The notes under the pieces: model-generated
Databases searched by the model: none
What the model saw: only the letters and a program-made list of their open reading frames with translations
What the model was told of the DNA's origin: nothing
Part shown: positions 1 to 20,998 of the stretch, one piece after another
Numbering within the stretch: the stretch's first letter is position 1
Layout: the number at the start of each line of letters is the position of its first letter
Virus record (IMG/VR): IMGVR_UViG_3300038299_000184
Location: 1-64,000 of that record
Strand: one strand, 5' to 3'
Origin: a virus
DNA length: 64,000 bases
Translations under genes and position numbers: made by a program

Positions 1-98
1 CATACAATTCAACTCATGTAAGATACCGAGAAGCACTGCATATAGATTCCATAAAATCGTGGTGTGTAGTATAGGTTGTAAGTCTTACAAAAATAAAT

Positions 99-1501: not shown

Positions 1502-1509
1502 TATTTTAT

Positions 1510-2430: not shown

Positions 2431-2507
2431 TAATTCTATTAAGACACCACTAGTATTAGGATTCGTAATTTATTACGCGAATTAAAACAGACACCATAAT
2501 TAATCTT

Positions 2508-2921: not shown

Positions 2922-2936
2922 ACCATAAATAAGTAT

Positions 2937-3326
2937 ATGGACTGGGAGAAAACTTTCGAGTCAGCTATCCTCAAGGGGCTGAACTCATACATGAAGACTA
3001 AGAATATAGAGCACGAAGTTCTAGAATCTGATAATGATCTTATTGTAAACATCTATAAAATGGAGAGTGGTGACATAAATATTGTTAATTCATATGGTGA
3101 TCTATTGGTGGAGTATGCTGACCCAGATGCCACACACAGACGTTCTATATTCTTCAACCCCTCCAAGGCTCGTCTGGGTGACTTCGATGTATTCGAGGAC
3201 ATCATACCAGTAGTTAGGATATCCTCATCAATACCTAGTAAAGGTGGCTGGACAAACGAACAGATAGATGTTGACGATTTTAATACCAGTATTCACAACT
3301 GGTTGGATCAATTGGGTCTTTATTAA
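2937..3326 (+). CDS. hypothetical protein
   Basis: 129-aa ORF, TAAATA-N5-ATG start. Confidence 0.75.
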   Translation: MDWEKTFESAILKGLNSYMKTKNIEHEVLESDNDLIVNIYKMESGDINIVNSYGDLLVEYADPDATHRRSIFFNPSKARLGDFDVFEDIIPVVRISSSIPSKGGWTNEQIDVDDFNTSIHNWLDQLGLY

Positions 3327-3332
3327 TTTGAC
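3297..3332 (+). repeat. 36-bp direct repeat, copy 1
   Basis: AACTGGTTGGATCAATTGGGTCTTTATTAATTTGAC; 34/36 identical to 4207-4242. Confidence 0.9.
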
Positions 3333-3363
3333 ACCACCCTGTGGTTTGTGTATCATTGCCCCA

Positions 3364-4200
3364 ATGAGTACATTCAATAAGAAGACAGGTTATAAGATGG
3401 CAACCCGAGAGGTAGGCTATCGTGGGACTAAGTTCTCGCCATACTGCTTCCAAAGACAACTCCGTGATAAAAAGGATGATGGTGTCACCGACACACTAGA
3501 GGAGATGAAAAACTGTGTAGTGAAGCAGATTACATTTAAAGAAGCTCAGAACTTCATCCTAGAATTCGAATGGTTAGGTACTATGGGTACCACAAAATTC
3601 AGCTACGGTGTCTTCACCAATGATAGACTGACCGCTGTGTATTGTTTCGGACTAACCGCTGGCACCGCTGCACTATCCCAAGTATTTGGCGAAGAGAATA
3701 AGAAACGGGGTCTAGTATTAGTACGTGGTGCTTGCGCTCCATGGGCATACAGAAACATGTCTAGCTTTGGTATGGGCAAGGTTTTACCAGCACTACATAA
3801 GGAACGTGACATCGATTATCTAATCGCATACTCCGACCCAGAGGCTGGTGAGATAGGTACAGTATACCAAGCAACCAATTGGAACTTCTATGGTATGACA
3901 GCCCCTGTGAACTATCTAGTTCGCCCAGACGGTAAGCGGTCAGACCCAAAACTGATTTCAAAGTATGCCAAGAAGAAAAACATTACATACGCAGAACAGA
4001 AGCAATTGTTCGTAGACGAAGGTTATACCTTCGAGAGGGGTTCTCCAAAACTTAAATACTTCAAGATCATTGGTAACAAAACCATTCGAAAAGAACTCAC
4101 CAAACAGTTGAAAGTTCCTGTATATAAGTACCTTAAACGTATGGACAACATGGAAGACTTATATGGTGTGTTCAAGGCGCAGATTAAAAATTCAAAATAG
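3364..4200 (+). CDS. Mom-like (GNAT-fold) DNA modification protein
   Basis: LIAYSDPEAGEIGTVYQATNW resembles the Mu Mom-family signature. Confidence 0.65.
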   Translation: MSTFNKKTGYKMATREVGYRGTKFSPYCFQRQLRDKKDDGVTDTLEEMKNCVVKQITFKEAQNFILEFEWLGTMGTTKFSYGVFTNDRLTAVYCFGLTAGTAALSQVFGEENKKRGLVLVRGACAPWAYRNMSSFGMGKVLPALHKERDIDYLIAYSDPEAGEIGTVYQATNWNFYGMTAPVNYLVRPDGKRSDPKLISKYAKKKNITYAEQKQLFVDEGYTFERGSPKLKYFKIIGNKTIRKELTKQLKVPVYKYLKRMDNMEDLYGVFKAQIKNSK

Positions 4201-4206
4201 ATTTGA

Positions 4207-4242
4207 AACTGGTTGGATCAATTAGGTCTTTATTAAGTTGAC
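4207..4242 (+). repeat. 36-bp direct repeat, copy 2
   Basis: AACTGGTTGGATCAATTAGGTCTTTATTAAGTTGAC. Confidence 0.9.
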
Positions 4243-4272
4243 CTAATACCATAAAAATGCATAAATGCACAT

Positions 4273-4641
4273 ATGAACAAATTCGATAAACTAGTACAAC
4301 AAATATTAAACGAGAACACTGACAATGGACTCACCCAGCAACAGCACAAGGCGGTGTCCAAGACTGGGGAACTTTTAGGTCTTGAGTTTGATGATGTACA
4401 GCTCGTCGATAATGGCGAAACTGGTTATGTCCTACACTTATTTAAAGACGGTGAAAAATCTGCGCGGTTTGAGTACGACAAGGTAGATAATGAATGGTTT
4501 GTAAGTCAAGCTGGTGGTAGTGAGTTAAAGGTTGGTAAGATATCCTTTAACGGTGAACTGATCGAGGGCACACGTTACATACCCAACCCAAGATCTGGTA
4601 GGAAGCCTGTAGTGGAAATCAAACCACCCCAGAGGTCTTAA
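4273..4641 (+). CDS. hypothetical protein, possible internal head protein
   Basis: N-terminus MNKFDKLVQQILNE resembles a T4-type capsid targeting leader. Confidence 0.6.
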   Translation: MNKFDKLVQQILNENTDNGLTQQQHKAVSKTGELLGLEFDDVQLVDNGETGYVLHLFKDGEKSARFEYDKVDNEWFVSQAGGSELKVGKISFNGELIEGTRYIPNPRSGRKPVVEIKPPQRS

Positions 4642-4677
4642 TATACAAATCTACACCTACTTAGTATAATTAATATT

Positions 4678-5286
4678 ATGAGTAAATTTGGTTATATAAT
4701 AGAGAAAATCAACAGTATGGTGTCAACAGATTCCCGAATCGATGACATAATGGCTTTAGATGGGCAGGATAGGTTGGACTTACTAGGTAAAACCGAATTT
4801 GCTATTATTACATCCGACAGGGCAGATGGTCACAATGCAGCCATTGGGCAGGAAATTAAGGTAGCTAGAGATGGAGGGTCTAAGGAAGAGATGGAGGCTG
4901 TATTGGCTAGAAACAAGGTCGAGGTAGATGAAGGTAATGCTGCTATGAGGCCAAGTCTTGAAGACCGATTAAAATCCAGTGGGTTCAGTTATATGAAGGT
5001 AGTGGGTAAATTCCCCGAAGATATTACTGGTGTTAGTACGACTGAGGTATCATTTCTAGTATTACTAGACGAAGATAATATACAAGGTGGTATTGATACA
5101 TTAAATAAAATTGCACAAGGTTATAAGCAAGACTCTATTTTAGTGGGTAGTGGTACACAGACACCACGCTACAGTTTTGTTTCAGAAACCAAAATTGACC
5201 CTCTGGGTAGTACATTAGTGCCAGCAACATCTAGTGATGCTTACTCCACAATGTTCAAAGATGGGCAGTACTTCACAGTGTCTTAA
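4678..5286 (+). CDS. hypothetical phage protein
   Basis: 202-aa ORF, TAATTA-N5-ATG start. Confidence 0.75.
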   Translation: MSKFGYIIEKINSMVSTDSRIDDIMALDGQDRLDLLGKTEFAIITSDRADGHNAAIGQEIKVARDGGSKEEMEAVLARNKVEVDEGNAAMRPSLEDRLKSSGFSYMKVVGKFPEDITGVSTTEVSFLVLLDEDNIQGGIDTLNKIAQGYKQDSILVGSGTQTPRYSFVSETKIDPLGSTLVPATSSDAYSTMFKDGQYFTVS

Positions 5287-5341
5287 AAAAATATATCACA
5301 AAAAGCTTTGACACATTGCCACTATTTTGTATGGTCACCAC

Positions 5342-5923
5342 ATGACACAAACACTATACACCACGGACGACCTAAAAGCAGTAGTAGCAACTCTTAATAA
5401 GAAGGGTGCTGCATATAAGGAACAACCTAAGATCCGACTAATCAAAAGAATTCTAAAATCTTGGGGTAGGAGTATCGGACATAGTTTAAAGTTGGTTAAT
5501 GGTACCGCTAATACAATTTCTGGTAAGGTACAGGTTGAGCTAACCATCAACGGGGAATGCAACCGAAGCGATCTAGCATCCATCACCCTTGAGTGGGTTA
5601 AACGAATTCGCGGCTTCAGATTGGATAACCACCCACCAAAGGTTAATACTCGTCATGCTGCGATTACAGCCCAGAGACAGGCCGATCAATTATTTAACGA
5701 GGAGAAATCTAAGTTCGTTACCGTTGTGTTGGAAGCACTAGGTGGTAGTAATGCCACGACAATTGCAGTAGTAGAGTCCATTAAATTTGGACTAGATACT
5801 AATACGACTCTTGCAATCATCGTTGCAAAAAATCGACATAATCAATTGAGGTTACAATTGAAAACTACTCTTGAAGGTTTGAAGCAGGATTGGCATTCGG
5901 ATAATAAATTAAACAATAACTAA
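5342..5923 (+). CDS. hypothetical protein
   Basis: ORF after TTGACA...TATGGT; flanked by the AAAATATATCACAAAAAGCTT repeat. Confidence 0.7.
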   Translation: MTQTLYTTDDLKAVVATLNKKGAAYKEQPKIRLIKRILKSWGRSIGHSLKLVNGTANTISGKVQVELTINGECNRSDLASITLEWVKRIRGFRLDNHPPKVNTRHAAITAQRQADQLFNEEKSKFVTVVLEALGGSNATTIAVVESIKFGLDTNTTLAIIVAKNRHNQLRLQLKTTLEGLKQDWHSDNKLNNN

Positions 5924-5940
5924 AATATATCACAAAAAGC

Positions 5941-5968
5941 TTGCAAACTGGCATTAGGTTTGTATAAT
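5941..5968 (+). promoter_or_regulatory. sigma70-type promoter of tRNA operon 1
   Basis: TTGCAA-N16-TATAAT with A-rich UP element; near-identical to 14065-14092. Confidence 0.8.
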
Positions 5969-5991
5969 TAAAAACATCAGACAATAACACT

Positions 5992-6084
5992 ATGAACTCC
6001 TTTATCAACATTTCACATTCATCTTTCTCAATCTCGGATTGGGCGGTATGTGTGAGTGCGGATACTAAGAGGTCGTGGTTTTAA
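5992..6084 (+). CDS. attenuator leader peptide 1 (MNSFINISHSSFSISDWAVCVSADTKRSWF)
   Basis: 30 codons read directly; 8 Ser, 2 Trp, 1 Cys; lies between promoter and terminator upstream of tRNA-Trp/Ser/Ser/Cys. Confidence 0.8.
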   Translation: MNSFINISHSSFSISDWAVCVSADTKRSWF

Positions 6085-6117
6085 AATTTGAATAACAGAT
6101 AATTAAAATAAGCTACG

Positions 6118-6148
6118 ACCCAATTGGATAACTCCAGTTGGGTTTTTT
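6118..6148 (+). terminator. attenuator terminator 1
   Basis: ACCCAATTGGA-TAAC-TCCAGTTGGGT plus T run; competes with the 6071-6080/6111-6120 helix. Confidence 0.85.
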
Positions 6149-6244
6149 GTTTATAGGGTTTTTGAGGAGGTTACACCCGAAGTAATCGAACGTCCATAAT
6201 GATGGCTTACCTTTAGGGTAAAAGAGAAACACAAACAAACAAAC

Positions 6245-6318
6245 AGGAGTATCGTATAAAGGTTATTACAGTGGTTTCCAAAACCATTTATCTAGATTCA
6301 AGTTCTAGTGCTCCTGCC
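6245..6318 (+). tRNA. tRNA-Trp(CCA)
   Basis: AGGAGTA/TGCTCCT acceptor, GTGGT-TT-CCA-AA-ACCAT. Confidence 0.88.
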
Positions 6319-6323
6319 TTATT

Positions 6324-6408
6324 GGAAGATTCCGTCTACGGTGACAAAGTGGTTTTGAACGCCATGGGTACTGAAAGGTACGGGGTTCGAGTCCTCAATT
6401 TTCCGCCA
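6324..6408 (+). tRNA. tRNA-Ser(TGA)
   Basis: GTGGT-TT-TGA-AC-GCCAT, long variable arm, G73, CCA. Confidence 0.9.
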
Positions 6409-6414
6409 TTTAAC

Positions 6415-6501
6415 GGGGTGTTGGCTGAGTGGTTTAAGGTACCGCATTGGAAATGCGGCAGGGTCTAAACGCCCTCACTGGTTCAAATCCAGTACACCCT
6501 T
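6415..6501 (+). tRNA. tRNA-Ser(GGA)
   Basis: CCGCA-TT-GGA-AA-TGCGG, long variable arm, GTTCAAATCC. Confidence 0.9.
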
Positions 6502-6509
6502 CATAACAA

Positions 6510-6582
6510 GATGCCGTGGTAGAGCGGTAATACATGGGTTTGCAAAACCCTCAACACTGGTTCGAGTCCAGTCGGCATCTCC
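6510..6582 (+). tRNA. tRNA-Cys(GCA)
   Basis: GATGCCG/CGGCATC acceptor, U73, loop TT-GCA-AA. Confidence 0.9.
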
Positions 6583-6852
6583 TTATTCAACCACAATAGT
6601 CAGATCACCTTGATCATGAGAGATTGTCTTAACGGCAACCCCTTCAATGATAACTTGTGGTAATAGAAGATCTGGAATATCTTCTGTGTTGTTGTTAGAT
6701 CTAGTCTTAGCAACTTCCAATTCCTTTTCGGTGAACAGTAGACTAACTACTTCACCGTTTTCATAAACATGAACATGAACGTATTCTGCTGTAGCCGAGT
6801 TATATCTTTTGGTATTCTCAACACGCAGTAGACTCCCTAGTTTAGATTTCAT
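6583..6852 (-). CDS. hypothetical protein antisense within the tRNA cluster
   Basis: 89-aa ORF with TAATTA-N5-ATG on the minus strand. Confidence 0.7.
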   Translation of the reverse strand: MKSKLGSLLRVENTKRYNSATAEYVHVHVYENGEVVSLLFTEKELEVAKTRSNNNTEDIPDLLLPQVIIEGVAVKTISHDQGDLTIVVE

Positions 6853-6874
6853 GTTATTAATTAGTCAATTAAAT

Positions 6875-6951
6875 GCAAGATTAGCTCAGTCGGTAGAGCT
6901 GGGGGTTTACATCCCCTGTAAGCATAGGTTCAAGCCCTATATCTTGTACCA
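6875..6951 (+). tRNA. tRNA-Val(TAC)
   Basis: GCAAGAT/ATCTTGT, GGGGG-TT-TAC-AT-CCCCT, CCA. Confidence 0.9.
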
Positions 6952-7024
6952 TAGTTCGCTACCAGTGGTAGATGGATGTATAAAGGGCTTCCCGTTGTCC
7001 CAGCATAGCAAAACAACGGTATAT

Positions 7025-7108
7025 GGGGTGCATGGCAACATGGGTGTTGCATTTCCTTTGCAAGGAAGCATTCAAGTTAAAAGAGTTCGATTCTCTTGTG
7101 CTCCACCA
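7025..7108 (+). tRNA. tRNA-Ala(TGC), enlarged variable region
   Basis: G3:U70 acceptor pair, loop TT-TGC-AA, CCA. Confidence 0.85.
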
Positions 7109-7274
7109 TATGATAGAAGAAAATGAAGTAGAAGAAATAGAAATGTTCCCAGAGCACCAGTTCCCCGATTTTAGGGAGGCTGATTATGATCAGTGGGCTG
7201 CGGAATTTAAACACCACCTTGAAGATTTATTAGAATAGTTATTTACAATATCTGCATTTTTGTTATACACATTC

Positions 7275-7559
7275 ATGGTAAGAATTTTTACGACAATCAC
7301 TAATGACTCATTACAGGTAACAGTAACAGACTCATTGAAGAATACTGAAGAGATCCACACTATCAAAGATGTTGAATCTTATAGGAATTTTATCAAGGTA
7401 ATCGAGAGCGGTAAAGTTCCTTGGTTTGATAGGAATACACGAATTTCTAATTCGTCATCAATTAACTGGGCATCTAGTGAAACAGATAACCAGTTCGTGA
7501 TTGATATTGTCGATTATATTTTCCACGATGGAGAACGACCAAAAACTTTAAAGGGTTAG
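7275..7559 (+). CDS. hypothetical protein
   Basis: ORF track. Confidence 0.6.
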   Translation: MVRIFTTITNDSLQVTVTDSLKNTEEIHTIKDVESYRNFIKVIESGKVPWFDRNTRISNSSSINWASSETDNQFVIDIVDYIFHDGERPKTLKG

Positions 7560-7575
7560 CAACATAATTAGTTAT

Positions 7576-8193
7576 ATGTCTTTTAAGGATTTTTATAGTG
7601 AGTTTGTAATCGAGAGTTACGAAGGTGAGCAAACCTCCGTACACCCAGTCATCAAGGTTGGTGTGGGTCATGAAGATTATATGAAGTGGGCATTTAAGAT
7701 CGATAATAGGTTCGAAGATAATGCAGCCACTATCCATATGAAGAATGTTAGTATGGTACTGAACCATAATGCTATTGATAAAACTATCAGAAACACTGAT
7801 ATGAGTAAAACAAGAGCTGGTTCCAAACAACCCATCATCCTTCTTAAAGGTGAAATTGTTGCAGTAGATTTTGATGAGTCGGAGTTGCGTTTAAAACTCC
7901 AAGAGAGTTCATGGGAACCTGTTACATATAACCCCCACAAGAACCCCGAAGTGGTTTTGTCTAATACATTACCTAGCTGGTGGTGTACAGAGCCTAGGCT
8001 GGGTGATAATAGAGGTAAACCCGATTTCATCAAGAATCGCCTAGATGCTATGGTTGAGTATGGTGAACACCCCGATCAACCAACACAAGTCACACATAAA
8101 GATGGAAGTGGTAGATCAATATTCACAGCTAGGGAGGTACTACTAAAGCAGCACAGAGTGTGTAATGAAGATTATATGTGGATGTTGAAATAA
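7576..8193 (+). CDS. hypothetical protein, possible internal head protein
   Basis: MSFKDFYSEFVIES leader resembles the T4 CTS; TAATTA-N5-ATG. Confidence 0.65.
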   Translation: MSFKDFYSEFVIESYEGEQTSVHPVIKVGVGHEDYMKWAFKIDNRFEDNAATIHMKNVSMVLNHNAIDKTIRNTDMSKTRAGSKQPIILLKGEIVAVDFDESELRLKLQESSWEPVTYNPHKNPEVVLSNTLPSWWCTEPRLGDNRGKPDFIKNRLDAMVEYGEHPDQPTQVTHKDGSGRSIFTAREVLLKQHRVCNEDYMWMLK

Positions 8194-8231
8194 GATGTTG
8201 ACACACCACGGTGGTGATGTATAACCACCAC

Positions 8232-8498
8232 ATGAGAGCAATCATTTACGACAACCAAGTTTATAAGTCCGAACAATCTGGCACTGTAGTACTAGCCAAG
8301 GATAGACTATATGAGAGTGGTACGTTTGGTGCCATCGCCCTAAGTGGGGATGATGAGGGTAAATATCTTGAGGGTTGGTTCAGTGGTGATTTCACACCTA
8401 TTACTGACACCGACGAGGAAAGTCATTATGTAGAATGGGCACGGGAAAACAATTTCAGTGAGTACTCAACTCGTGACCCTAAACTCGGAAACAAATAA
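8232..8498 (+). CDS. hypothetical protein
   Basis: ATG 6 nt after TTGACA-N16-TATAAC. Confidence 0.65.
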   Translation: MRAIIYDNQVYKSEQSGTVVLAKDRLYESGTFGAIALSGDDEGKYLEGWFSGDFTPITDTDEESHYVEWARENNFSEYSTRDPKLGNK

Positions 8499-8514
8499 AC
8501 AAACACAACTTGTT

Positions 8515-9081
8515 ATGAAGAACGCAAAACCAAAAGATCCTTATAAAGTCGTTGAAGCTGCTTTGGATTATATCAGTCTCAATCTTTTAGAACCAACGCT
8601 ATTGAGAAACGTAAGATTAGATCCGAATAGTTTACGTAAACACGCTAAGATTCGTTTCGAAGGATTGCCGTTCCGAGATTATGACGATTTGACATTTCCT
8701 CATGGCGTAGAGGAGTGGTTGGATTATGTGTTCGGGGATGGCATGACTTATTCGGCTTTTTTAGCTGGGGAAGCTGCTAAAAAATCCATTATGGCTAGTG
8801 TTAAGCTACCAAGATGGACGGATATTTACAGACGGATGAAAGTGGAGAAACAGCAAGCTATCTACAACAAACTATCTTTCGGGGAAAGGTTTAAAGTCTC
8901 ATTCTCTCCTAGCAAGATCGAAATTCGTGAGGTAGTTTCAAAAGACGATAGGTCAAAATACATGCTTTGGGGAGCGAAGGAACGAAGGTATCTCGATAAG
9001 CATAACGACCATATAGACAAGTACTGGATCGACGAAGATGGAAATTACAAATACGATTTCGAATGCATACCTTATCTATAA
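8515..9081 (+). CDS. hypothetical protein
   Basis: ORF track, internal ATG. Confidence 0.7.
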   Translation: MKNAKPKDPYKVVEAALDYISLNLLEPTLLRNVRLDPNSLRKHAKIRFEGLPFRDYDDLTFPHGVEEWLDYVFGDGMTYSAFLAGEAAKKSIMASVKLPRWTDIYRRMKVEKQQAIYNKLSFGERFKVSFSPSKIEIREVVSKDDRSKYMLWGAKERRYLDKHNDHIDKYWIDEDGNYKYDFECIPYL

Positions 9082-9130
9082 ACATAAGGAAGCTGCTGAC
9101 GAAGCAGGGTAAACATATTAAATAATTTAC

Positions 9131-9205
9131 GGGACGTTCGTATAACGGCTATTACACGGGATTGTCTATCCTGCTATGAGGTTTCGATTACCTCACGTCT
9201 CGCCA
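9131..9205 (+). tRNA. tRNA-Asp(GTC)
   Basis: CGGGA-TT-GTC-TA-TCCTG, G73, CCA. Confidence 0.9.
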
Positions 9206-9206
9206 T

Positions 9207-9293
9207 TTTAAGTATTGTGGAAACACAGAGTATCGGTTGTACCGACTGAACATAGTAATGACTCTAGCACTAGACAGGTGTTACTTAAAACCC
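9207..9293 (+). ncRNA. tRNA-shaped RNA with expanded anticodon arm
   Basis: TTTAAGT/ACTTAAA stem, TGTG-GAAA-CACA arm, GAGT/ACTC enclosing TCGGT-TGT-ACCGA, 5-bp/7-nt arm AGCAC-TAGACAG-GTGTT. Confidence 0.5.
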
Positions 9294-9296
9294 TAT

Positions 9297-9371
9297 CGGA
9301 GGGTAGCTGAGACGGATTAGCATAGGTCTGAAAAACCTAAGAGGTGGGATCGTTACCCACACCTCCGACCA
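9297..9371 (+). tRNA. tRNA-Phe(GAA)
   Basis: TAGGT-CT-GAA-AA-ACCTA, CCA. Confidence 0.88.
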
Positions 9372-9415
9372 TTTAATAATTGACACCACTGGTTATTTAT
9401 TATACCACTAGGTAT

Positions 9416-9781
9416 ATGAGCAACCACGAAAGAGTCACAGACCTCACAGCTAGGTCTAAAGTAAAGCGAGGTACTACAGTTGATCTGATCAGCTCTAGGA
9501 GACGCAAGCCAGCCACTGATCTAATCGGTGCTAATAAAACACAAGACCGTAAAGATTCTTGTAAGAAACATTTCATGATGAGATACCGAGAACGGTATGG
9601 ATTCATTTGTAAGCATTTCATGTATTCAGAAATTTTGAAACTTGTTAGATCATCTAAACCATATGAACATTGCGTGAAGATGAATCGACACAAGTATGAG
9701 ATCGACCATAGTGGAACGACACTAAATATAGTTTATGATGATAGGTTGAACGTGCTGGTCACACTATTACCACCAAGGTAG
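9416..9781 (+). CDS. hypothetical basic protein
   Basis: ORF track; C-terminal VYD...LVTLLP. Confidence 0.6.
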   Translation: MSNHERVTDLTARSKVKRGTTVDLISSRRRKPATDLIGANKTQDRKDSCKKHFMMRYRERYGFICKHFMYSEILKLVRSSKPYEHCVKMNRHKYEIDHSGTTLNIVYDDRLNVLVTLLPPR

Positions 9782-9796
9782 TAGAGATACTAAAAT

Positions 9797-9873
9797 GGTG
9801 TAGGTAGCATAATTGGCAATGCCCTCGGTTGTGATCCGAGAAAATGCGGGATCATACCCCGTCCTATACCCCA
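9797..9873 (+). tRNA. tRNA-His(GTG) with encoded G-1:C73
   Basis: CTCGG-TT-GTG-AT-CCGAG; G precedes GTGTAGG and C73 precedes CCA. Confidence 0.9.
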
Positions 9874-9876
9874 TAT

Positions 9877-9951
9877 TGTTGTGTAGCTCAGAGGAAGAGC
9901 GCAGCTTTGATAAAGCTGAGGTCGGGATTTCAAAATTCCCCACAACAACCA
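9877..9951 (+). tRNA. tRNA-Ile(GAT)
   Basis: CAGCT-TT-GAT-AA-AGCTG, CCA. Confidence 0.9.
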
Positions 9952-9989
9952 TTTATTGACACCAATGGTATTCATTACTAAGTATACCC

Positions 9990-10235
9990 ATGTCAACACG
10001 AGCAGATAGAATATCTGACCACTACTCTATAGTATTCAAATATGGGTCAAAGTTTAAGACCATTATAACACCAGAGTCTGGTTGTGGGATATGCCCAAGC
10101 GAGGCATGGGTGTTTGGTGGGCCTATGACCAAGTGTGATAAAGAAATTAGTATGTCCTGTGAGCCTGTTATACAGTCACTAGATATACCAGTACACAGAA
10201 TAAAATCAACGGAAGATTTACTAGACAGGGTCTAG
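9990..10235 (+). CDS. hypothetical protein
   Basis: 81-aa ORF, TAAGTA-N5-ATG; 3' end overlaps tRNA-Ser. Confidence 0.5.
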   Translation: MSTRADRISDHYSIVFKYGSKFKTIITPESGCGICPSEAWVFGGPMTKCDKEISMSCEPVIQSLDIPVHRIKSTEDLLDRV

Positions 10236-10298
10236 GCTGGATTGCTAATCCAAGTACACCACTAGTGGTGTGGGGATCGTGCCCTCAATCTTCTGCCA
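10211..10298 (+). tRNA. tRNA-Ser(GCT)
   Basis: GGAAGAT/ATCTTCT, loop TT-GCT-AA, long variable arm, G73, CCA. Confidence 0.88.
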
Positions 10299-10343
10299 TA
10301 TTGTATGTGTTTCTCTTACACCATTCTATAATTATATAGAACT

Positions 10344-11090
10344 GTGACTATGGAAATAACATTTTTAACAACGTCAACAATTTCAGATATTCAAGTAACA
10401 CAATCTAGGTGCATTAAAAAATTCTTCCCAGATAGTGAACATGTGATTATTGATGGTAATAAGAGCTTCCCAAAGGTTTGGTACGAATGGCTGGATGTAG
10501 TAAAGGACAGCGAGTCGGATTGGTTTATACACATCGATGAAGATTGTTTCATAACATCCCCAGATGAAATATTAAAGCTGATCGAGGAGATGAAATCTGG
10601 TGGTTATGACATCGCAGGTTCGCCAGATGGTTATAATGAATTTTACCGACATGGTAATCACATGGCTATTAATTCATTTTTTATGGTATTGAATAAATCA
10701 GTAATTGATACATGGCACAATCGAACAGGTAATTGTCCTCAGTTTAAAAAGGATTGGATTGAAGAATATCCGTTTGAAAGGCACGGTGATTCGCATTTTA
10801 TATATAATGTTAAATTATTAGATGGGTACCATACATGGGTACCATATTCAGAACCATACTACGGATTTCTATGGGTGTTGAAGCAGAAGGGTTTGAAATT
10901 TAAATATATAGAACCTGTGTTCAATCCAACCTTCAGTACCACAGATCTGTTAAATGGTACAGTTAAACATATGTGGTTCCAACGCCAACGGAAGAGTGTT
11001 AAAGTAGTATCAGCAGCACATACAATATCTAATAAGGATAGATTTGATGGTATGTTATTATATATAAACCACCTTCTACTAAGTAATTAA
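10344..11090 (+). CDS. GT-A fold glycosyltransferase-like protein
   Basis: DWFIHIDEDCF DxD motif. Confidence 0.6.
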   Translation: MTMEITFLTTSTISDIQVTQSRCIKKFFPDSEHVIIDGNKSFPKVWYEWLDVVKDSESDWFIHIDEDCFITSPDEILKLIEEMKSGGYDIAGSPDGYNEFYRHGNHMAINSFFMVLNKSVIDTWHNRTGNCPQFKKDWIEEYPFERHGDSHFIYNVKLLDGYHTWVPYSEPYYGFLWVLKQKGLKFKYIEPVFNPTFSTTDLLNGTVKHMWFQRQRKSVKVVSAAHTISNKDRFDGMLLYINHLLLSN

Positions 11091-11094
11091 ATGT

Positions 11095-11241
11095 ATGAGT
11101 GAAGAAAAGAAAACACCATTCAAGCGAGGAGAAGTTAGGCGACGACAAGATGCCATCAAGTTTGAACCACCACTATACCCTAGACCTTCCAAGGACTGGG
11201 ACTTAAAGAAAGGTCAAAGAAAACTTGACTCTGGTAACTAG
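11095..11241 (+). CDS. small basic hypothetical protein (48 aa)
   Basis: TAATTA-N5-ATG; reads MSEEKKTPFKRGEVRRRQ... Confidence 0.45.
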   Translation: MSEEKKTPFKRGEVRRRQDAIKFEPPLYPRPSKDWDLKKGQRKLDSGN

Positions 11242-11272
11242 TGGTGTATTATGAATACATAATTAAATTTAT

Positions 11273-11616
11273 GGGGCTGATTTGGTTTCGACTTTAATCA
11301 ATAATTACCCAGTATCAACCAAGGTGGTTCCAAGACCTGCTGATAAGATCAACCAAAATGACGAAAATACAGTCGCTCTAGCTGCCTAGGCAGTGAGCCA
11401 CACAGGACTTCTATCAACCCTGTATGGCTAAGAGTAATAAGATAGTGCATTCGGTGTAAGACATCGACAGCTACCCATACAGGCTGTTAAATACAGGATG
11501 GTGAGTCAGATATCATACACTGACTAGTGTGAACAACGAAATGGTTCAAAAATGGTTGTAGACGTACTGAGATACGATGATTAAAACAAGCAGTTCAACT
11601 CTGCACAGCTCCACCA
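11273..11616 (+). ncRNA. ssrA: tmRNA
   Basis: 5' GGGGCTGA...TTCGAC; 3' T arm plus CAGCTCCACCA; tag frame ...NDENTVALAA-TAG ending at 11389; promoter TTGACT-N16-TATTAT. Confidence 0.95.
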
Positions 11617-11653
11617 TAATAGCCCACCTTGTAATGAGGTGGGCTATTATTTA
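11616..11653 (+). terminator. hairpin/terminator after tmRNA
   Basis: ATAATAGCCCACCT...AGGTGGGCTATTAT. Confidence 0.75.
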
Positions 11654-11698
11654 ATACAAGGATGCCCTAATTAGTAGTATAACCCCAACTATACTACT

Positions 11699-11944
11699 AT
11701 GAAAACACTACTAGGAAGATTTAAAAACTGGAAGACCACACTACTTGGTGCCCTTGCCGCTGCACTCATTGCTGCTGGTGGTTCACTATCAGAGGGTCAA
11801 GTAGATTACAAGATCATACTTGCTGCCGCTGGTGCTGCCGCGATTGGCTCTGTACTCAAAGACCCTGCTAAGAAAGTAAAACCTGTTAAGGGTATCGCTA
11901 AAGCCATTGTGGTTGATGAGGAAACTGGGGAGGATGTTGGGTAA
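11699..11944 (+). CDS. putative holin-like membrane protein
   Basis: Two hydrophobic helices, charged C-terminus. Confidence 0.5.
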   Translation: MKTLLGRFKNWKTTLLGALAAALIAAGGSLSEGQVDYKIILAAAGAAAIGSVLKDPAKKVKPVKGIAKAIVVDEETGEDVG

Positions 11945-12198
11945 TGACCGTATTTGGTGCACTTAAAATATTTGATATAATCAAGTTGGCACTGATGATT
12001 TGGTCTGCCACGAAACTACAAGCCCTACTAAAAAGATCTTATGAAATTGATAACGAAATTGATAATGCTGCCATTGATGCTACTAAGTCTGATATGCTGC
12101 GGATCAAGCGGCTTGCCGACGAAAAAGCAAGAATTGCTAAATACCTCAGCGTTGCTGACTCCGTACTCCGTGAAGTCCCTAAAGGGAAAGGAGTATAA
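11944..12198 (+). CDS. putative i-spanin-like protein
   Basis: N-terminal hydrophobic segment plus helical charged domain; overlapped by a lipoprotein ORF. Confidence 0.45.
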   Translation: MTVFGALKIFDIIKLALMIWSATKLQALLKRSYEIDNEIDNAAIDATKSDMLRIKRLADEKARIAKYLSVADSVLREVPKGKGV

Positions 12199-12298
12199 GT
12201 TTGAACAAGGTGTCTGGATAGGCACTGGTGAATCACTATACTCACAGGCTGCACTATCTGATGCGGTTTCCTCTGGCAGGGTACGCAACGGTAAATAA
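12041..12298 (+). CDS. putative o-spanin-like lipoprotein
   Basis: Signal peptide with lipobox-like LSLICC; overlaps the previous ORF in another frame. Confidence 0.45.
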   Translation: MKLITKLIMLPLMLLSLICCGSSGLPTKKQELLNTSALLTPYSVKSLKGKEYKFEQGVWIGTGESLYSQAALSDAVSSGRVRNGK

Positions 12299-12305
12299 TT
12301 TAATC

Positions 12306-12335
12306 AAGGGCTGTACTTAATTGTACAGCCTTTTT
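12306..12335 (+). terminator. intrinsic terminator
   Basis: GGCTGTAC-TTAATT-GTACAGCC-TTTTT. Confidence 0.8.
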
Positions 12336-12384
12336 ATTTGAAAACAATAGTTGACCTAAATGTTATATCGTGTATGGTCAACCC

Positions 12385-12624
12385 ATGTCAGAGAACATTC
12401 ACTATCGAGGTTATAATATCCAAACCATCACAGAGACCCTTGGGCTTAAAGGCCGAACCATCACACCATACAAATCCTTCGTCGTGAAGGGTGCCAAGGT
12501 TGTAGGCTCAGAGAGTTTCGCACCATTGTACAGAACCACTCGGGGTGGCTACCCTAAGTCGGCAGCACTCCGTGACATCAAGAACGATATCGACTGGTAT
12601 CAGAAACAGGGGTGGATCGCTTAA
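12385..12624 (+). CDS. hypothetical protein
   Basis: ATG 6 nt after TTGACC...TATGGT. Confidence 0.65.
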   Translation: MSENIHYRGYNIQTITETLGLKGRTITPYKSFVVKGAKVVGSESFAPLYRTTRGGYPKSAALRDIKNDIDWYQKQGWIA

Positions 12625-12858
12625 TATGGATTTATTCTGGAAATCATGGGTGGTTATTGTTGCCCTTTGGGTGGGGTTGTTCCTATTCTCAGACTGTGAC
12701 CCACCACACAAAATTGGGTCACAGACTGAAATGTTGCATGATGCAAGGGGTAAGACTGTAAAGGAATGTAGTGTTGACGGTTTGATTTTCACAATCAAAT
12801 TCACTGATGATACATCACTTAACTCAAGAATGGACAAACACTCACCAAAGGTATACTA

Positions 12859-13089
12859 ATGAAAGAATTTGAAGTATGGTCTGCGGGTTACCTTGCCACA
12901 GGTATGGAAGGTAGACCTATGAAGGCAAGGTGTGAAGGTACATGGGAGGGTAAAGACTTCCCAGAGGCTTGCCAGAACTGGGCAAACTCTTTGAAGCAAC
13001 CAGAGCTTTACACCCCCGAGACTAACCGTTATTGGGGTATTCATTTATTTGATAATGAGGTTGATGCCCGTAAACAATTTGGATATTAA
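12859..13089 (+). CDS. hypothetical protein
   Basis: 76-aa ORF. Confidence 0.6.
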   Translation: MKEFEVWSAGYLATGMEGRPMKARCEGTWEGKDFPEACQNWANSLKQPELYTPETNRYWGIHLFDNEVDARKQFGY

Positions 13090-13140
13090 ATAAAACTTAC
13101 AGAAAGGTGTTGACCTAATTCAGATTTATGGTAGTATTTA

Positions 13141-13368
13141 TACATCGGAAGGAACAAAGGGTTTGGCGACCAAGAGTGACTGAAGATAAATCGGGTTTCG
13201 TTGATATCGCCATTGATACGAATCAGTATGTTAGTACAAGTCCAATCAGAAAAGGTCGCAGGTTCGAATCCTGTCTAATCATCCACAGTGGTGTTTAGTA
13301 GCTCAGTTGGTAGAGCAGTTTTGTATAAAGACTAGGAGGGTGCAATTCCTTCCATACATTCCGATGTA
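13141..13368 (+). ncRNA. ncRNA containing a circularly permuted tRNA domain (YrlA/Y-RNA-like architecture)
   Basis: Closing stem TACATCGGAA/TTCCGATGTA; T arm (13258-13274) precedes D arm (13301-13316); own promoter TTGACC-N16-TAGTAT. Confidence 0.75.
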
Positions 13369-13382
13369 AAATAAATAGGATG

Positions 13383-13470
13383 GATTGATATGACAGACAA
13401 CTTGACGGGGTCGCGACCCCTCGGGAGAGGGGATATCAATTTAGACTAGTGGTGTATATCGTCAGTCTGA
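13383..13470 (+). ncRNA. putative structured RNA
   Basis: GATTGATAT/ATATCAATT stem with GGGGTCGCGACCCC and CCCCTC-GGGA-GAGGGG; TAGACT/AGTCTG hairpin. Confidence 0.4.
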
Positions 13471-13496
13471 AAAAATACTGAACTATCCACTACGAA

Positions 13497-13581
13497 GAAC
13501 ATAACAGTGGCTGGGTATAGCATTCCACAATGTGCTAGGGGTGCCCCCTAGAGATAACCAACTCAGTCACTGTTGTGGTTC
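13497..13581 (+). ncRNA. putative structured RNA (long closing helix)
   Basis: ATAACAGTGGCTGGGT/ACTCAGTCACTGTTGT 16-bp helix with G:U pairs; inner hairpins. Confidence 0.5.
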
Positions 13582-13646
13582 AAAACAAATTTTCCACATA
13601 ATTCAAATAAAACTTGAATACACTAAGTGGTGTGTATAAGTATAAT

Positions 13647-13724
13647 TGCGGGGTGGACAAGTCAGGTTAAGTCACTGGTCTCATAAGTCAGTCATCGAAT
13701 GTTCGAATCATTCTCCCGCAACCA
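13647..13724 (+). tRNA. tRNA-Met(CAT) (initiator versus elongator uncertain)
   Basis: TGCGGGG acceptor is fMet-like, but the anticodon stem CTGGT/GTCAG lacks three G:C pairs; CCA. Confidence 0.85.
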
Positions 13725-13730
13725 TATAAT

Positions 13731-14042
13731 ATGAACCTAAACGAACAAATCAAAGCCGACTACGAACAGTTGAAAACAACTAAACGTACTTGGCGGTTGG
13801 ATGAGACCAATTGTAAAGTGACAACCATACTCAATAGTATGGAAACCCACGAGCAAGATGCAGAGTTTGAGGTAGATGCTATGACAGGGGCAATGCTAGA
13901 ATGTAGTATGCACTTTAAAGGAACTCTTGACGAAGTGGTTCGAGATAAATCAATCCTAATTGGGTCATTAGTAGCTGGAACTAAGAAGGCACTAGTATTT
14001 GCCACAGACGATAGCACCACAAACGTGGTCAAAATAAAATAA
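13731..14042 (+). CDS. hypothetical protein
   Basis: 103-aa ORF. Confidence 0.65.
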   Translation: MNLNEQIKADYEQLKTTKRTWRLDETNCKVTTILNSMETHEQDAEFEVDAMTGAMLECSMHFKGTLDEVVRDKSILIGSLVAGTKKALVFATDDSTTNVVKIK

Positions 14043-14064
14043 TTCAAAATATATCAAATAAAAC

Positions 14065-14092
14065 TTGCAAACTGTAATAGGTTTACTATAAT
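14065..14092 (+). promoter_or_regulatory. sigma70-type promoter of tRNA operon 2
   Basis: TTGCAA-N16-TATAAT, homologous to 5941-5968. Confidence 0.8.
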
Positions 14093-14102
14093 TAAAAGCG
14101 TA

Positions 14103-14177
14103 ATGAAGAACAACACACAACAACAGTATCAACCTCAACCGTATCCTATGGACTCGGGTGGTTCTATTGTTGTCTAG
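14103..14177 (+). CDS. attenuator leader peptide 2 (MKNNTQQQYQPQPYPMDSGGSIVV)
   Basis: Codons 6-15 are exclusively Gln/Tyr/Pro; precedes a terminator and tRNA-Tyr/Pro/Gln. Confidence 0.85.
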   Translation: MKNNTQQQYQPQPYPMDSGGSIVV

Positions 14178-14204
14178 TAAGTTACATTACAGAAACAAAT
14201 GTTC

Positions 14205-14237
14205 AACCCGAATCCTTAATTGGTTTCGGGTTTTTTT
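14205..14237 (+). terminator. attenuator terminator 2
   Basis: AACCCGAATCC-TTAATT-GGTTTCGGGTT plus T run; 5' arm also complementary to GGACTCGGGT (14150-14159). Confidence 0.87.
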
Positions 14238-14264
14238 GTGTCCAGTAAAGGTCAAAACAAATAT

Positions 14265-14349
14265 GGGTGTGTTGGGCAATTGGTTGCCTAGCGGATTGTA
14301 ACTCCGTGGGCGAAAGTCGTTGTAGGTTCGAGTCCTACCATACCCACCA
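14265..14349 (+). tRNA. tRNA-Tyr(GTA)
   Basis: GCGGA-TT-GTA-AC-TCCGT, long variable arm, CCA. Confidence 0.92.
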
Positions 14350-14352
14350 TAT

Positions 14353-14426
14353 CGATACATAGCTCAACGGTAGAGTACCACCTAATGGGGGTGGAGATTG
14401 CGGTTCAATTCCGTGTGTATCGACCA
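14353..14426 (+). tRNA. tRNA with aberrant anticodon loop (Pro-like body)
   Basis: Intact cloverleaf with C1:G72, A73 and CCA; loop TAATGGG lacks U33. Confidence 0.65.
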
Positions 14427-14465
14427 TATCAAAAATCAAGCTGTAGAGATAAGCAGCAAATATAT

Positions 14466-14543
14466 CAGAGTGTTGGGTAATTGGCTACCCGCCTAGTTTG
14501 GATCTAGGAGATAATGCAGGTTCGAATCCTGTCACTCTGACCA
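14466..14543 (+). tRNA. tRNA-Pro(TGG)
   Basis: CAGAGTG/CACTCTG, CCTAG-TT-TGG-AT-CTAGG, CCA. Confidence 0.93.
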
Positions 14544-14546
14544 TAT

Positions 14547-14621
14547 AGGGATATAGTGTAATGGTTAGCACCGAAAACTTTGAATTTTCTAGTCTAGGTT
14601 CGAGTCCTAGTGTCCCTTCCA
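14547..14621 (+). tRNA. tRNA-Gln(TTG)
   Basis: GAAAA-CT-TTG-AA-TTTTC, CCA. Confidence 0.92.
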
Positions 14622-14674
14622 TATATATTGTTAAGTTTAACTTGAAAACTTGAACCAATCTACTAATTAAGTAT

Positions 14675-15418
14675 ATGAGTAGAAGAAGGCGTAGTGTTGT
14701 GTGGTTGATGCCAGAGGGTGAGTTTAAAGAACTAGTAGCCAATTCATTCTGTTATAGTGATATTGTTAGGGTGTTCAACTTTGGGAAGGTGGGTGGTAAT
14801 ATAAACACCATTAAGAGTCGGATAGCTGATTTGGGATTGGATATATCACATTTTGGAAATCCAGCGGTCATAGCAAATTCATACAGGGTGTTGAGTGAGA
14901 AGGCAGCTATCGATAAATGGTTTATAAAAACACCACATAAAATATTTTGTAACAGGTCTATTAAATGTTATATTAAAAAATTCAATCTTTTAAAATATGA
15001 GTGTTCAACAAATGGATGTGGTGTTAACACCACATGGTTGGGGTCTGAATTGATTCTGCAACTAGACCACATAGATGGTGATCGAAGTAATAACGTTTTA
15101 GGAAATTTGAGATACTTATGCCCCAACTGCCACTCACAAACTCCAACGTATGCGGGTAGGTCACTCAAAATACGACATGAATGTACTTCTTGTGGTGGTG
15201 TTAAACAAACCAAGAACTCTGAAAATTGTGCCAGTTGTGCTGCTATGATAAACTCTAGAATGAAGTTCGACCCAACATTCGACGAGCTACACCGCCAAGT
15301 ATGTATTGATAAAATTCCCTTCACAACTTTAGGTAAAGAGTATGGTGTATCTGATAATGCAGTGAGGAAACGTTGTATCAAACTAGGTATCGATCCAAAG
15401 ACTCGTTCCACTAATTAA
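14675..15418 (+). CDS. HNH homing endonuclease (paralog of 1651-2364)
   Basis: LQLDHIDGDRSNN...LCPNCHSQTPTY; KFDPT...GVSDNAVRKR HTH. Confidence 0.88.
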   Translation: MSRRRRSVVWLMPEGEFKELVANSFCYSDIVRVFNFGKVGGNINTIKSRIADLGLDISHFGNPAVIANSYRVLSEKAAIDKWFIKTPHKIFCNRSIKCYIKKFNLLKYECSTNGCGVNTTWLGSELILQLDHIDGDRSNNVLGNLRYLCPNCHSQTPTYAGRSLKIRHECTSCGGVKQTKNSENCASCAAMINSRMKFDPTFDELHRQVCIDKIPFTTLGKEYGVSDNAVRKRCIKLGIDPKTRSTN

Positions 15419-15424
15419 CACCAC

Positions 15425-15790
15425 ATGAAAGAATTTTGGAAAACAACTTTGTCAACTATAGCTGGTGTAGTGTTAGCAGCTCTCGTATTAGGTTTCTTTG
15501 GATTGATATATGAGAAGGCTAATAAGTATGATGCGCTCTTGGAGAGAGTAGAAATCGTCGAGGCTGGTCAACAGGAGACTAGAGAGAAGCTTGGTGACAA
15601 GATTGCCAAACTATCCGTAGAGGTCAAGGAGAGGCATGGTGACGAGGATAAGACACCACCTAAGTCAATCCCTTGGAGCATTACACCACCTTCACTATCA
15701 CCATCCCCTAGCCCAGTCCCTCATATAGATAATAATATCGATGCATATATCAAAGAGCAAAATAATATACGCGAGACTTTTAAACGTTAG
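15425..15790 (+). CDS. membrane-anchored coiled-coil, Pro-rich protein
   Basis: N-terminal TM, PSPSPSP segment. Confidence 0.65.
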   Translation: MKEFWKTTLSTIAGVVLAALVLGFFGLIYEKANKYDALLERVEIVEAGQQETREKLGDKIAKLSVEVKERHGDEDKTPPKSIPWSITPPSLSPSPSPVPHIDNNIDAYIKEQNNIRETFKR

Positions 15791-15828
15791 GTGTTGACAT
15801 ATAACACCAGTGGTGTATATTGAAGTTC

Positions 15829-16308
15829 ATGAGTAAATCAAACATTGAACTAAAAGAGGGTCAGAAAATTAGAATTTCTCACTACCGCACCGTTGATTAT
15901 GATACGGGAACCACCAAACTTACCAAAAGTCAACCACTACGGGTAAATAAATACGCTGGTAAATCATTCCGCAAATTTGAATTAGATGTACTTGTTAAAG
16001 CTGGTTATACCATTGGTACCAAGGGTGGAAAGACAGTTGCTACACTAGAAGATGTTGATGGTACAATCATCGCAGCAGGTGTATCAATCTGTTCTAGAGA
16101 AGATACATTCTCTCGCAAGCTTGGTAACAAGATTGCTACAGGGCGACTAGCCCAGATGATTAAAGATATTGATGTGTGGTGGTTCCCAGAGGTCGAGGCT
16201 GATATCGTAGCTGAGGCATATACACGGGTTGAAAGACCACACGAGGCTATTTGCCCACCATCTGTACCAGAACCAGTTTATTCGCCTAAAAAGGTACAAT
16301 ACAGATAA
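15829..16308 (+). CDS. hypothetical protein
   Basis: CS.ED.FSRKLG.KIA.GR segment typical of small phage proteins. Confidence 0.7.
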   Translation: MSKSNIELKEGQKIRISHYRTVDYDTGTTKLTKSQPLRVNKYAGKSFRKFELDVLVKAGYTIGTKGGKTVATLEDVDGTIIAAGVSICSREDTFSRKLGNKIATGRLAQMIKDIDVWWFPEVEADIVAEAYTRVERPHEAICPPSVPEPVYSPKKVQYR

Positions 16309-20548: not shown

Positions 20549-20998
20549 ATGGATCAGTTCATGAAACAACGACTTCGTGATGAAGTAGACGTAGCGACAG
20601 GTGACCGTGTGGTTGACTGGGTACGGTTTGGTGACATAAGACACCTATGGGACGCTGCACTGGCTACAGGCACACCAGAGGTGCCACAAGAGTACATAGA
20701 CAATGCCGATGAGTACTATGCCAAAGTTCGTGAACAAGAACGCCTAGAGGCAATACAGAGGGATAAAGACCTAGTACCCAACTTCATACAAGATATGAAA
20801 CATGCTCTAGGTGTCAATCTACAAGGAAAGGATACCTACAGGGAAATAGACCCATTCGGATTAGACAGGGGTAATCAAGCATATGAATCCGCTGTTAGGG
20901 CTGATATGGTGGCTAATAGAGAGGCTGCTGCATATACAAGAGAGATGAACGACATGGTTAATAAGATGTCTGGGGCTGATCAACTAGGTTCTTGGTAA
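20549..20998 (+). CDS. hypothetical protein
   Basis: ORF track. Confidence 0.7.
   Translation: MDQFMKQRLRDEVDVATGDRVVDWVRFGDIRHLWDAALATGTPEVPQEYIDNADEYYAKVREQERLEAIQRDKDLVPNFIQDMKHALGVNLQGKDTYREIDPFGLDRGNQAYESAVRADMVANREAAAYTREMNDMVNKMSGADQLGSW

Follow-up and report, generated by a model that had tools for sequence, protein, structure and literature searches.

Leader-peptide attenuators are known from amino-acid operons, with trpL, hisL, leuL and pheL as examples and thrL and ilvGMEDA as multivalent members. In Escherichia coli, leader-peptide attenuation also governs phenylalanyl-tRNA synthetase, through the pheM leader of pheST. In every described leader-peptide attenuator known to us, the regulated genes serve amino-acid biosynthesis or are related protein genes. 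The transfer RNA (tRNA) genes of phages, by contrast, are usually regarded as constitutively expressed codon-usage patches, and to our knowledge phage control of their own tRNA genes is essentially unknown. The locus considered here, the 14 kb unit, spans positions 14,065 to 14,621 of a window of 64,000 nucleotides (nt) that forms the first half of IMG/VR virus record IMGVR_UViG_3300038299_000184 (127,787 bp in total, 40.4% G+C). It is probably a ribosome-mediated transcription attenuator of the trp/his type that gates phage tRNA genes and would exert negative feedback on tRNA supply.

Like attenuators of the trp/his type, including pheL (PMC3082878), the 14 kb unit places a short open reading frame (ORF) between promoter and genes and features a regulatory codon cluster, an intrinsic terminator and mutually exclusive 1:2, 2:3 and 3:4 helices, together with a proposed stall-dependent read-through. 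In a folding model with a ribosome mask, region 1 is covered and region 2 is left free when the ribosome stalls at the regulatory codons, and region 2 becomes covered once the ribosome is further along. The regulated genes are tRNAs, not amino-acid biosynthesis or related protein genes, and the unit is therefore classed as a variant that would work like the family and not as an ordinary member. Like the thr and ilv leaders, it would sense several amino acids at once. Unlike the attenuators of amino-acid operons, it is phage-borne, controls tRNA genes, has no Shine-Dalgarno sequence and belongs to a nearly leaderless mRNA; furthermore, its codons name the tRNAs that follow, so that the sensed quantity is most plausibly tRNA supply. 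The likeness to pheST lies in applying attenuation to the translation apparatus instead of a biosynthetic pathway, although pheST is a cellular system that reads only one amino acid and controls a synthetase protein. T-box riboswitches (RF00230) share the choice between terminator and antiterminator that reads tRNA status, but in them tRNA itself is the ligand, no translation is involved, and the controlled genes are synthetase or amino-acid genes.

Two published cases are also close in part. The trn operon of Anabaena sp. PCC 7120 is a silent array of 26 tRNA genes induced under translational stress, according to two papers (PMC8421152; PMC10272220). As in the proposed action of the 14 kb unit, accessory tRNAs are switched on when translation is impaired, which makes this the nearest published demand-dependent case found; unlike the 14 kb unit, the array is controlled at its promoter by the repressor TrcR acting on direct repeats (PMC8421152; PMC10272220). 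The strings 'attenuat', 'leader peptide' and 'terminator' each occur 0 times in PMC8421152. In mycobacteria, leaderless polycysteine short ORFs are reported to act as cysteine-responsive attenuators (bioRxiv 10.1101/834739). These resemble the 14 kb leader in being leaderless short ORFs whose codon content ties downstream expression to supply, but they are found in cells, regulate operons of protein genes and sense a single amino acid. A search of the literature turned up no account of leader peptides that attenuate tRNA genes, though older phage literature may hold cases.

The 14 kb unit consists of the following elements.

14065..14092, plus strand: sigma-70-type promoter, with TTGCAA at 14065-14070, a 16-nt spacer and TATAAT at 14087-14092.
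14103-14177, plus strand: leader ORF of 24 codons, MKNNTQQQYQPQPYPMDSGGSIVV, with stop TAG (ORF translation).
14118-14147, plus strand: regulatory run of ten consecutive codons (codons 6-15), with Gln 5, Tyr 2 and Pro 3.
14120-14146, plus strand: region 1, the 5′ strand of the 1:2 hairpin, which holds the regulatory run (minimum free energy (MFE) fold).
14150-14173, plus strand: region 2, paired with region 1 in the ribosome-free state (MFE fold).
14150-14159, plus strand: antiterminator core GGACTCGGGT, with 9/10 pairs to ACCCGAATCC at 14206-14215.
14205-14237, plus strand: intrinsic terminator, with 5′ arm (region 3) at 14205-14215, loop at 14216-14221 and 3′ arm (region 4) at 14222-14232.
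14265-14349, plus strand: tRNA-Tyr (GTA), starting 27 nt past the T-run (ARAGORN, Rfam).
14353-14426, plus strand: atypical tRNA with anticodon loop TAATGGG (ARAGORN anticodon ATG, His; Rfam tRNA, 50.4 bits).
14466-14543, plus strand: tRNA-Pro (TGG) (ARAGORN, Rfam).
14547-14621, plus strand: tRNA-Gln (TTG) (ARAGORN, Rfam).

Sequence and computation show these parts and their layout, along with the competing helices and the covariation between leaders and tRNAs. The leader ORF, the ten-codon run (CAA CAA CAG TAT CAA CCT CAA CCG TAT CCT) and the terminator had been proposed in an initial annotation, and all three proved exact to the base; ARAGORN also calls the canonical Tyr, Pro and Gln tRNAs that it had placed after the run. 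A consensus scan ranks the promoter as the top match within 13000-15500 (10/12), and the motif TATAAnTAAnA[AG]C occurs genome-wide, on both strands, only here and at 5963. Since the ATG lies 10 nt after the end of the -10 hexamer and transcription is predicted to start at about 14098-14100, the 5′ untranslated region would measure only about 3-5 nt. The terminator hairpin (-14.4 kcal/mol) is closed by seven T at 14231-14237 and was found by a hairpin-plus-T-run scan that returns 6 sites in the first 20 kb and 28 on the plus strand of the genome; the consensus scan did not list it because its stem has one internal U.U mismatch. Between terminator and tRNA-Tyr there are only 27 nt, too few for a promoter, and the consensus scan calls none in them, and the tRNAs would therefore be made only via read-through of the terminator.

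On this arrangement of parts we infer a start site, leader translation, stalling and read-through that would act as follows. Transcription would start at the 14065-14092 promoter, and the nascent RNA would carry the 24-codon ORF rich in Gln, Tyr and Pro. When Gln-, Tyr- or Pro-tRNA is scarce, a ribosome would stall no later than the seventh or eighth codon of the run and sit on region 1, leaving region 2 (14150-14159) free to pair with region 3 (14206-14215) once that is made. The 2:3 pairing would block the terminator (14205-14232), and the polymerase would continue into tRNA-Tyr, the atypical tRNA, tRNA-Pro and tRNA-Gln. When the tRNAs are plentiful, the ribosome would proceed over region 2, the terminator would form and transcription would stop at 14237; if the leader is not translated, region 1 would pair with region 2, with the same stop at 14237. 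The outcome would be negative feedback, in which the phage makes its Tyr/Pro/Gln tRNA set on demand.

Folding of the leader transcript agrees with these helices. Its MFE is -41.9 kcal/mol (z = -3.66; 1/200 shuffles folds as well), and the MFE fold comprises the 1:2 hairpin (14120-14146 with 14150-14173) and the terminator. Folding also reproduces the 9/10 pairing of 14150-14159 with 14206-14215 reported in the initial annotation. Taken alone, the 2:3 and 3:4 helices have energies of -11.9 and -14.7 kcal/mol, and the best duplex between leader positions 14103-14200 and the 5′ arm of the terminator (-15.1 kcal/mol) is reached by 4/2000 dinucleotide shuffles of the upstream segment. The mask model places a ribosome mask of 30 nt on a transcript that ends at 14221, so that region 4 does not yet exist. 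When the ribosome is absent, the model folds the 1:2 hairpin and leaves region 3 with 0 nt paired to region 2. An A site anywhere in 14106-14133 gives nine antiterminator pairs, which fits the earlier proposal that an early stall frees the antiterminator strand and would give read-through; on the last codons of the run the pairs drop to 8, 6 and 3, and at A sites 14145-14172 to 0. In the mask model this behavior is the three-state logic of the trp leader.

The composition of the run bears on whether it could be a low-complexity ORF that happens to precede tRNA genes. Low-diversity runs do occur, since, of the 147,476 stop-free ten-codon windows read from the genome (127,787 bp) in six frames, 55 contain at most three different amino acids. 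Most of these 55 consist of Ser, Leu, Val and Thr, and the only one made of Gln, Tyr and Pro is 14118-14147, against 4e-5 such runs expected genome-wide from composition. Among the 486 ATG ORFs of 20-35 codons, two reach the Gln/Tyr/Pro fraction of the leader, namely the leader itself and an unrelated minus-strand ORF at 125426. The leader contains all three canonical downstream identities (Tyr, Pro and Gln), and 10/23 of its codons match them, where 11% are expected (binomial tail 8e-5); counting the atypical tRNA as His gives 3/4 identities and a tail of 5e-4. Codon choice inside the run is undistinctive, with CAA, TAT and CCT common in the phage and CCG rare (5%). Given the match of identities and the recurrence of the pattern in five further units, coincidence is exceedingly improbable.

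Altogether there are six units in three genomes: the first unit of the window (win_U1), the 14 kb unit (U2), one on the contig L001 and three on the contig G003 (G003_A, G003_B and G003_C). The sister unit in the same window has these elements.

5941..6148, plus strand: sister unit with homologous promoter (-10 at 5963-5968), leader and terminator.
5992-6084, plus strand: sister leader ORF MNSFINISHSSFSISDWAVCVSADTKRSWF, followed by its terminator at 6117-6148.

Behind it lie tRNAs for Trp, Ser (TGA, called under relaxed settings only), Ser (GGA) and Cys, then Val, Asp, Phe, His and Ile, and its leader matches this block in 22/29 codons and 8/8 identities. A minus-strand ORF at window positions 6590-6853 apparently lies between tRNA-Cys and tRNA-Val of this block; as it is on the opposite strand, read-through transcripts would be antisense to it.

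The IMG/VR contig L001 encodes a terminase that shares 84% identity with that of the window. Its homologous unit keeps the promoter, the leader start, the terminator and 12 bases 3′ of the terminator. The L001 leader MKTYTQQYQYQSYLMDAGSAVVV has four Gln and four Tyr codons and no Pro, and behind its terminator there are only a Tyr-like tRNA gene and tRNA-Gln, with no tRNA-Pro. Other tRNA matches on this 61.7-kb fragment are Met and Trp only, and Trp is far from the unit. Window and L001 differ by an in-frame insertion or deletion (indel) of 3 nt inside the ORF and by a 2-nt indel directly past the stop. The Tyr-like gene (6163-6254) lacks a D arm but has a 7-bp acceptor stem, a T arm, CCA and the anticodon loop CTGTAAA (GTA), and its variable region measures 28 nt. 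Inspected by eye, it shows a short linker in place of the D arm and a GG-containing hairpin within the long variable region, so that the gene resembles a 'rewired' tRNA-Arg at about 115.2 kb of the phage genome; such a layout would make it a working tRNA-Tyr. That tRNA-Arg has no leader unit.

G003 is a 139,595-bp contig, with a terminase 50% identical to that of the window, whose three units share the promoter motif. The leader of unit A, MKHIMSNINLGRSLFCKRSNSLRVC, precedes tRNAs for Ile, Lys, Asn, Met, Leu, Ile, Leu, Phe, Ser, Ser, Arg and Arg, and the block also includes a doubtful Tyr(ata) and one unassigned call. The leader of unit B, MNNVTNFNHGTTVVVEHGEDTTLP, which contains the stretch HGTTVVVEHGEDTT, precedes Glu, Asp, Gly, Thr, Thr, Val, Gly and His tRNAs, and 14 of its consecutive codons are drawn from exactly the six amino acids of its block. 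Unit C has the leader MKNIFQQQWQQPYPPMDGSRNCV, a homologue of the 14 kb leader, ahead of Phe(aaa), Pro, Pro, Gln, Gly and Trp. The 14065-14092 promoter is kept in both L001 and G003, and their homologous leaders retain the ATG, the reading frame and the stop but not the sequence of the peptide. On the reverse strand of G003 (L114/L115), a conserved element of about 48 nt lies within about 10 nt 3′ of each of the three terminators. It reads GCGGnGAGATTAAAATTCGnG..CCCC..GGCAGGACGnnCGCT (reverse-complement coordinates 818-865, 13160-13207 and 20740-20790), matches no Rfam family and is absent from the window.

With a block defined as all default ARAGORN tRNAs from one terminator to the next leader, each of the six leaders contains every identity of its own block. 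Matched codons in the six leaders amount to 22/29, 10/23, 8/22, 19/24, 16/23 and 11/22, with binomial tails from 1.5e-5 to 1.5e-3. This count treats calls with A at position 34 (A34) unevenly, as Tyr(ata) is excluded from unit A and Phe(aaa) is kept in unit C, and it was hence repeated under alternative rules. When all ARAGORN calls are counted, His is absent from the 14 kb leader (3/4) and Tyr from G003 unit A (8/9); adding a weak Gly and a separately promoted Met to the first window unit gives 8/10 identities; and when the A34 calls are dropped, all identities are present. All tails are <=0.004 under every block definition tried. Four non-homologous leaders in two phages each name all identities of their own block, with tails <=0.003, and in a matrix pairing every leader with every block the highest values fall on the diagonal or between homologues, with other pairings less enriched.

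The six units also share their geometry. Their ORFs have 23-30 codons with in-frame ATG and stop in all six, the stop lies 25-34 nt before the terminator stem, and the stems range from -12.3 to -17.4 kcal/mol and are followed by 6-7 T. The 2:3 duplex beats shuffles in 5/6 units, where 4, 5, 22, 14 and 39 of 2000 reach it. Leader folds are stable in L001 (z = -4.59) and in the first window unit (5992-6148; z = -4.58), and L001 shows the same clean three-state switch as the 14 kb unit in the mask model. Alignment of the terminators of the three homologous units yields 2 compensatory pairs among 11 pairs, with 90.9% of cells paired, and in G003_C regions 2 and 4 have both changed along with a changed region 3.

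The same in-frame features bear on a switch that would work independently of translation, in which uncharged tRNAs would dock by their anticodons directly on the codon run, much as on a T-box specifier, and so stabilize the antiterminator. The run does display codons complementary to the anticodons of the downstream tRNAs. Nevertheless, in-frame ATG and stop are kept in six units, the indel within the ORF between window and L001 is in frame, the run is paired in the 1:2 hairpin instead of being presented in a loop, and Rfam gives no T-box or other cis-regulatory match at 14040-14260 (E up to 1), nor a match to T-box RF00230 in 1-16000 (E up to 1). Direct tRNA binding is thus very unlikely. Rfam has no family for the leader either.

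Several observations weigh against attenuation and need to be set beside this support, which is computational, with start site, leader translation and termination all predicted. In the full-length transcript at equilibrium, the terminator wins at 23/24 ribosome positions, and read-through would therefore have to be kinetic; thus the constrained folding proposed in the initial annotation, with and without a ribosome footprint, recovers the switch in the transcript cut before region 4 but not at full length. In classical attenuators, too, the terminator is favored at equilibrium and the choice is kinetic. Of the 23 leader codons, 13 are other than Gln, Tyr or Pro, and one of the four downstream genes, the atypical tRNA at 14353-14426, has no codon in the leader. 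The preference for the terminator and the 13/23 unmatched codons would suit a constitutive leaky terminator that damps a strong promoter, with an ORF that encodes a small peptide or nothing and a likeness to the tRNA set that is caused otherwise. Such a damper leaves unaccounted for the four non-homologous leaders that carry all identities of their own blocks, the lack of Pro codons exactly where tRNA-Pro is missing (L001), and the conservation of start, frame and stop but not of peptide sequence, and we consider it unlikely.

A second set of difficulties comes from the other units. In the mask model, win_U1, G003_B and G003_C show the antiterminator already when no ribosome is present and lose it once the ribosome reaches the end of the ORF, while in G003_A the 2:3 pairing is not significant (355/2000 shuffles) and there is no switch. 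The three units with a ribosome-free antiterminator are compatible with the reverse logic, in which a fast ribosome following closely suppresses the terminator, slow translation terminates, and the tRNAs are expressed only while Gln, Tyr and Pro are decoded efficiently. It requires the same parts, namely leader ORF and terminator, and effects of coupling on terminators are described (PMC5021804). Against it, in none of the six units could a terminating ribosome reach the terminator stem, as the stop codon precedes it by 25-34 nt; the 2:3 complementarity, reached by 4/2000 shuffles, would have no role; and positive feedback on tRNA supply is hard to rationalize. For these reasons the reverse logic appears quite improbable.

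The remaining difficulties for the attenuator concern the end of the leader, its initiation and the sample. The initial annotation held that a ribosome past the run allows termination, which is borne out in the mask model at A sites 14145-14172 but not at the stop codon, where the mask ends at 14160, 14150-14159 is uncovered and region 2 is free. Termination would therefore need a ribosome still at 14145-14172 as region 3 is being made; otherwise the ribosome would have to leave and the 1:2 hairpin to form again. The predicted 5′ untranslated region of 3-5 nt with no Shine-Dalgarno sequence may bear on the efficiency of initiation. Also, the Tyr-like gene of L001 is recognized neither by Rfam nor by default ARAGORN, and in G003 protein genes stand between terminator and tRNAs, at least one of them with its own promoter. 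Lastly, block boundaries were set after the data were seen, and units occur in only three genomes, with the three leaders of the U2 type homologous and thus not independent.

The absence of a Shine-Dalgarno sequence ahead of the 14103 leader is the norm in this phage, as a Shine-Dalgarno-like tetramer precedes only 8/175 ATG ORFs of at least 100 codons. A promoter of the form TTGnnn-16..19-TAnnnT ends 4-10 nt before the ATG in 28/175 long ORFs, compared with 72/5000 random positions. Gene starts of leaderless type after TTGACA-type promoters are seen, for example, at window positions 811-846, 5309-5344, 8198-8236 and 12353-12388, and the start context of other genes is TAAGTATATG.

Natural variation is available from metagenomes. 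The stretch is present in DNA contigs from seawater and marine metagenome runs, and none of the 24 runs listed as containing it is RNA. Contigs of three seawater runs are identical over the covered parts of 14040-14660. A variant in a fourth run has three listed differences in 14040-14236, at 14080, 14085 and 14098, all upstream of the ATG, and its tRNA-Tyr region has 34 letter differences and 11 gaps.

Searches for further relatives returned few. The terminase of the phage reaches about 30% identity at best within the phage collection. Megablast of 13900-14700 against phages found nothing, and blastn of the same interval found similarity at the tRNA level only, in 37 records, none covering 80%. 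A neighboring protein of 103 residues has 5 homologues in the protein collection, with no match in metagenome or genome contigs and, among viral contigs, a match only in L001. Exact-pattern scans for the terminator region returned only the L001 contig and nothing in metagenomes, and a pattern of promoter plus leader start matched 4 contigs, two of which are the known relatives. The other two, L117 and L118, are chance matches inside ordinary genes, and L118 is rich in tRNA genes but lacks such a unit. Only one of 79 terminase-related loci (909,211 bases) has at least two tRNA genes. Single tRNA genes in G002/L005 (56% terminase identity) have no leader, and G004 and G005 have no tRNA match. 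Short ORFs in the tRNA region of phage T5 were considered as such leaders and rejected, as eight small ORFs of AY692264 show no such composition.

The surroundings of the unit are rich in genes for small RNAs, with 16 tRNA genes called by ARAGORN within the first 15 kb of the window. A phage-borne transfer-messenger RNA (tmRNA) gene lies inside the tRNA region at 11273-11616 (Rfam RF00023, 53.3 bits, above the cut-off; no ARAGORN call), with a hairpin at about 11622-11650 on its 3′ side. Default ARAGORN overlooked tRNA-like genes at window positions 6324-6408, 7018-7108, 196-288 and 13141-13368. The first is Ser(TGA) under relaxed settings, 7026-7104 is a weak tRNA (Rfam, 29.9 bits), 196-288 is a tRNA-like call with no assigned identity, and 13250-13321 is a weak YrlA-like match (33.3 bits, below the cut-off). 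In the atypical tRNA at 14353-14426, A and not T precedes the ATG anticodon, and ARAGORN calls five tRNA genes with A-starting anticodons (aat, ata, aga, aaa) in G003. These genes may together represent a type of phage tRNA in which position 34 is A or the loop is shifted.

The four tRNA genes of the 14 kb unit are followed by an HNH-like gene. This gene (window 14675-15418) and another among the tRNA genes (1618-2364) are paralogues of about 247 codons each that share the motif CxxC...HxDGDxxNN...CxxCH. The HNH match of the first is weak and below the Pfam cut-off (21.9 vs 24.8 bits), and the second has none. Both are probably homing-endonuclease-like.

The design thus recurs in this phage clade, with six units in three genomes. 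We lean slightly toward a broader reading, in which each tRNA block is gated by a 'menu' leader that names its amino acids, the ribosome reports in real time which host tRNAs are limiting, only the matching replacement tRNAs are transcribed, and leaders are rewritten as tRNA genes are gained or lost. Host tRNAs could become limiting through shut-off, codon-usage mismatch or an anticodon-nuclease defense. If true, attenuation of this kind would be the first case known to us of regulated genes whose own product, tRNA, serves as the signal that the ribosome reads, and it would amount to direct homeostasis of single tRNA species. It would also account for the grouping of tRNA genes into blocks in these phages, and the rule that leader composition equals block content could be used to find missed or atypical tRNA genes. 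Ultimately, it would make a testable idea of phage tRNAs as a response to the depletion of host tRNAs.

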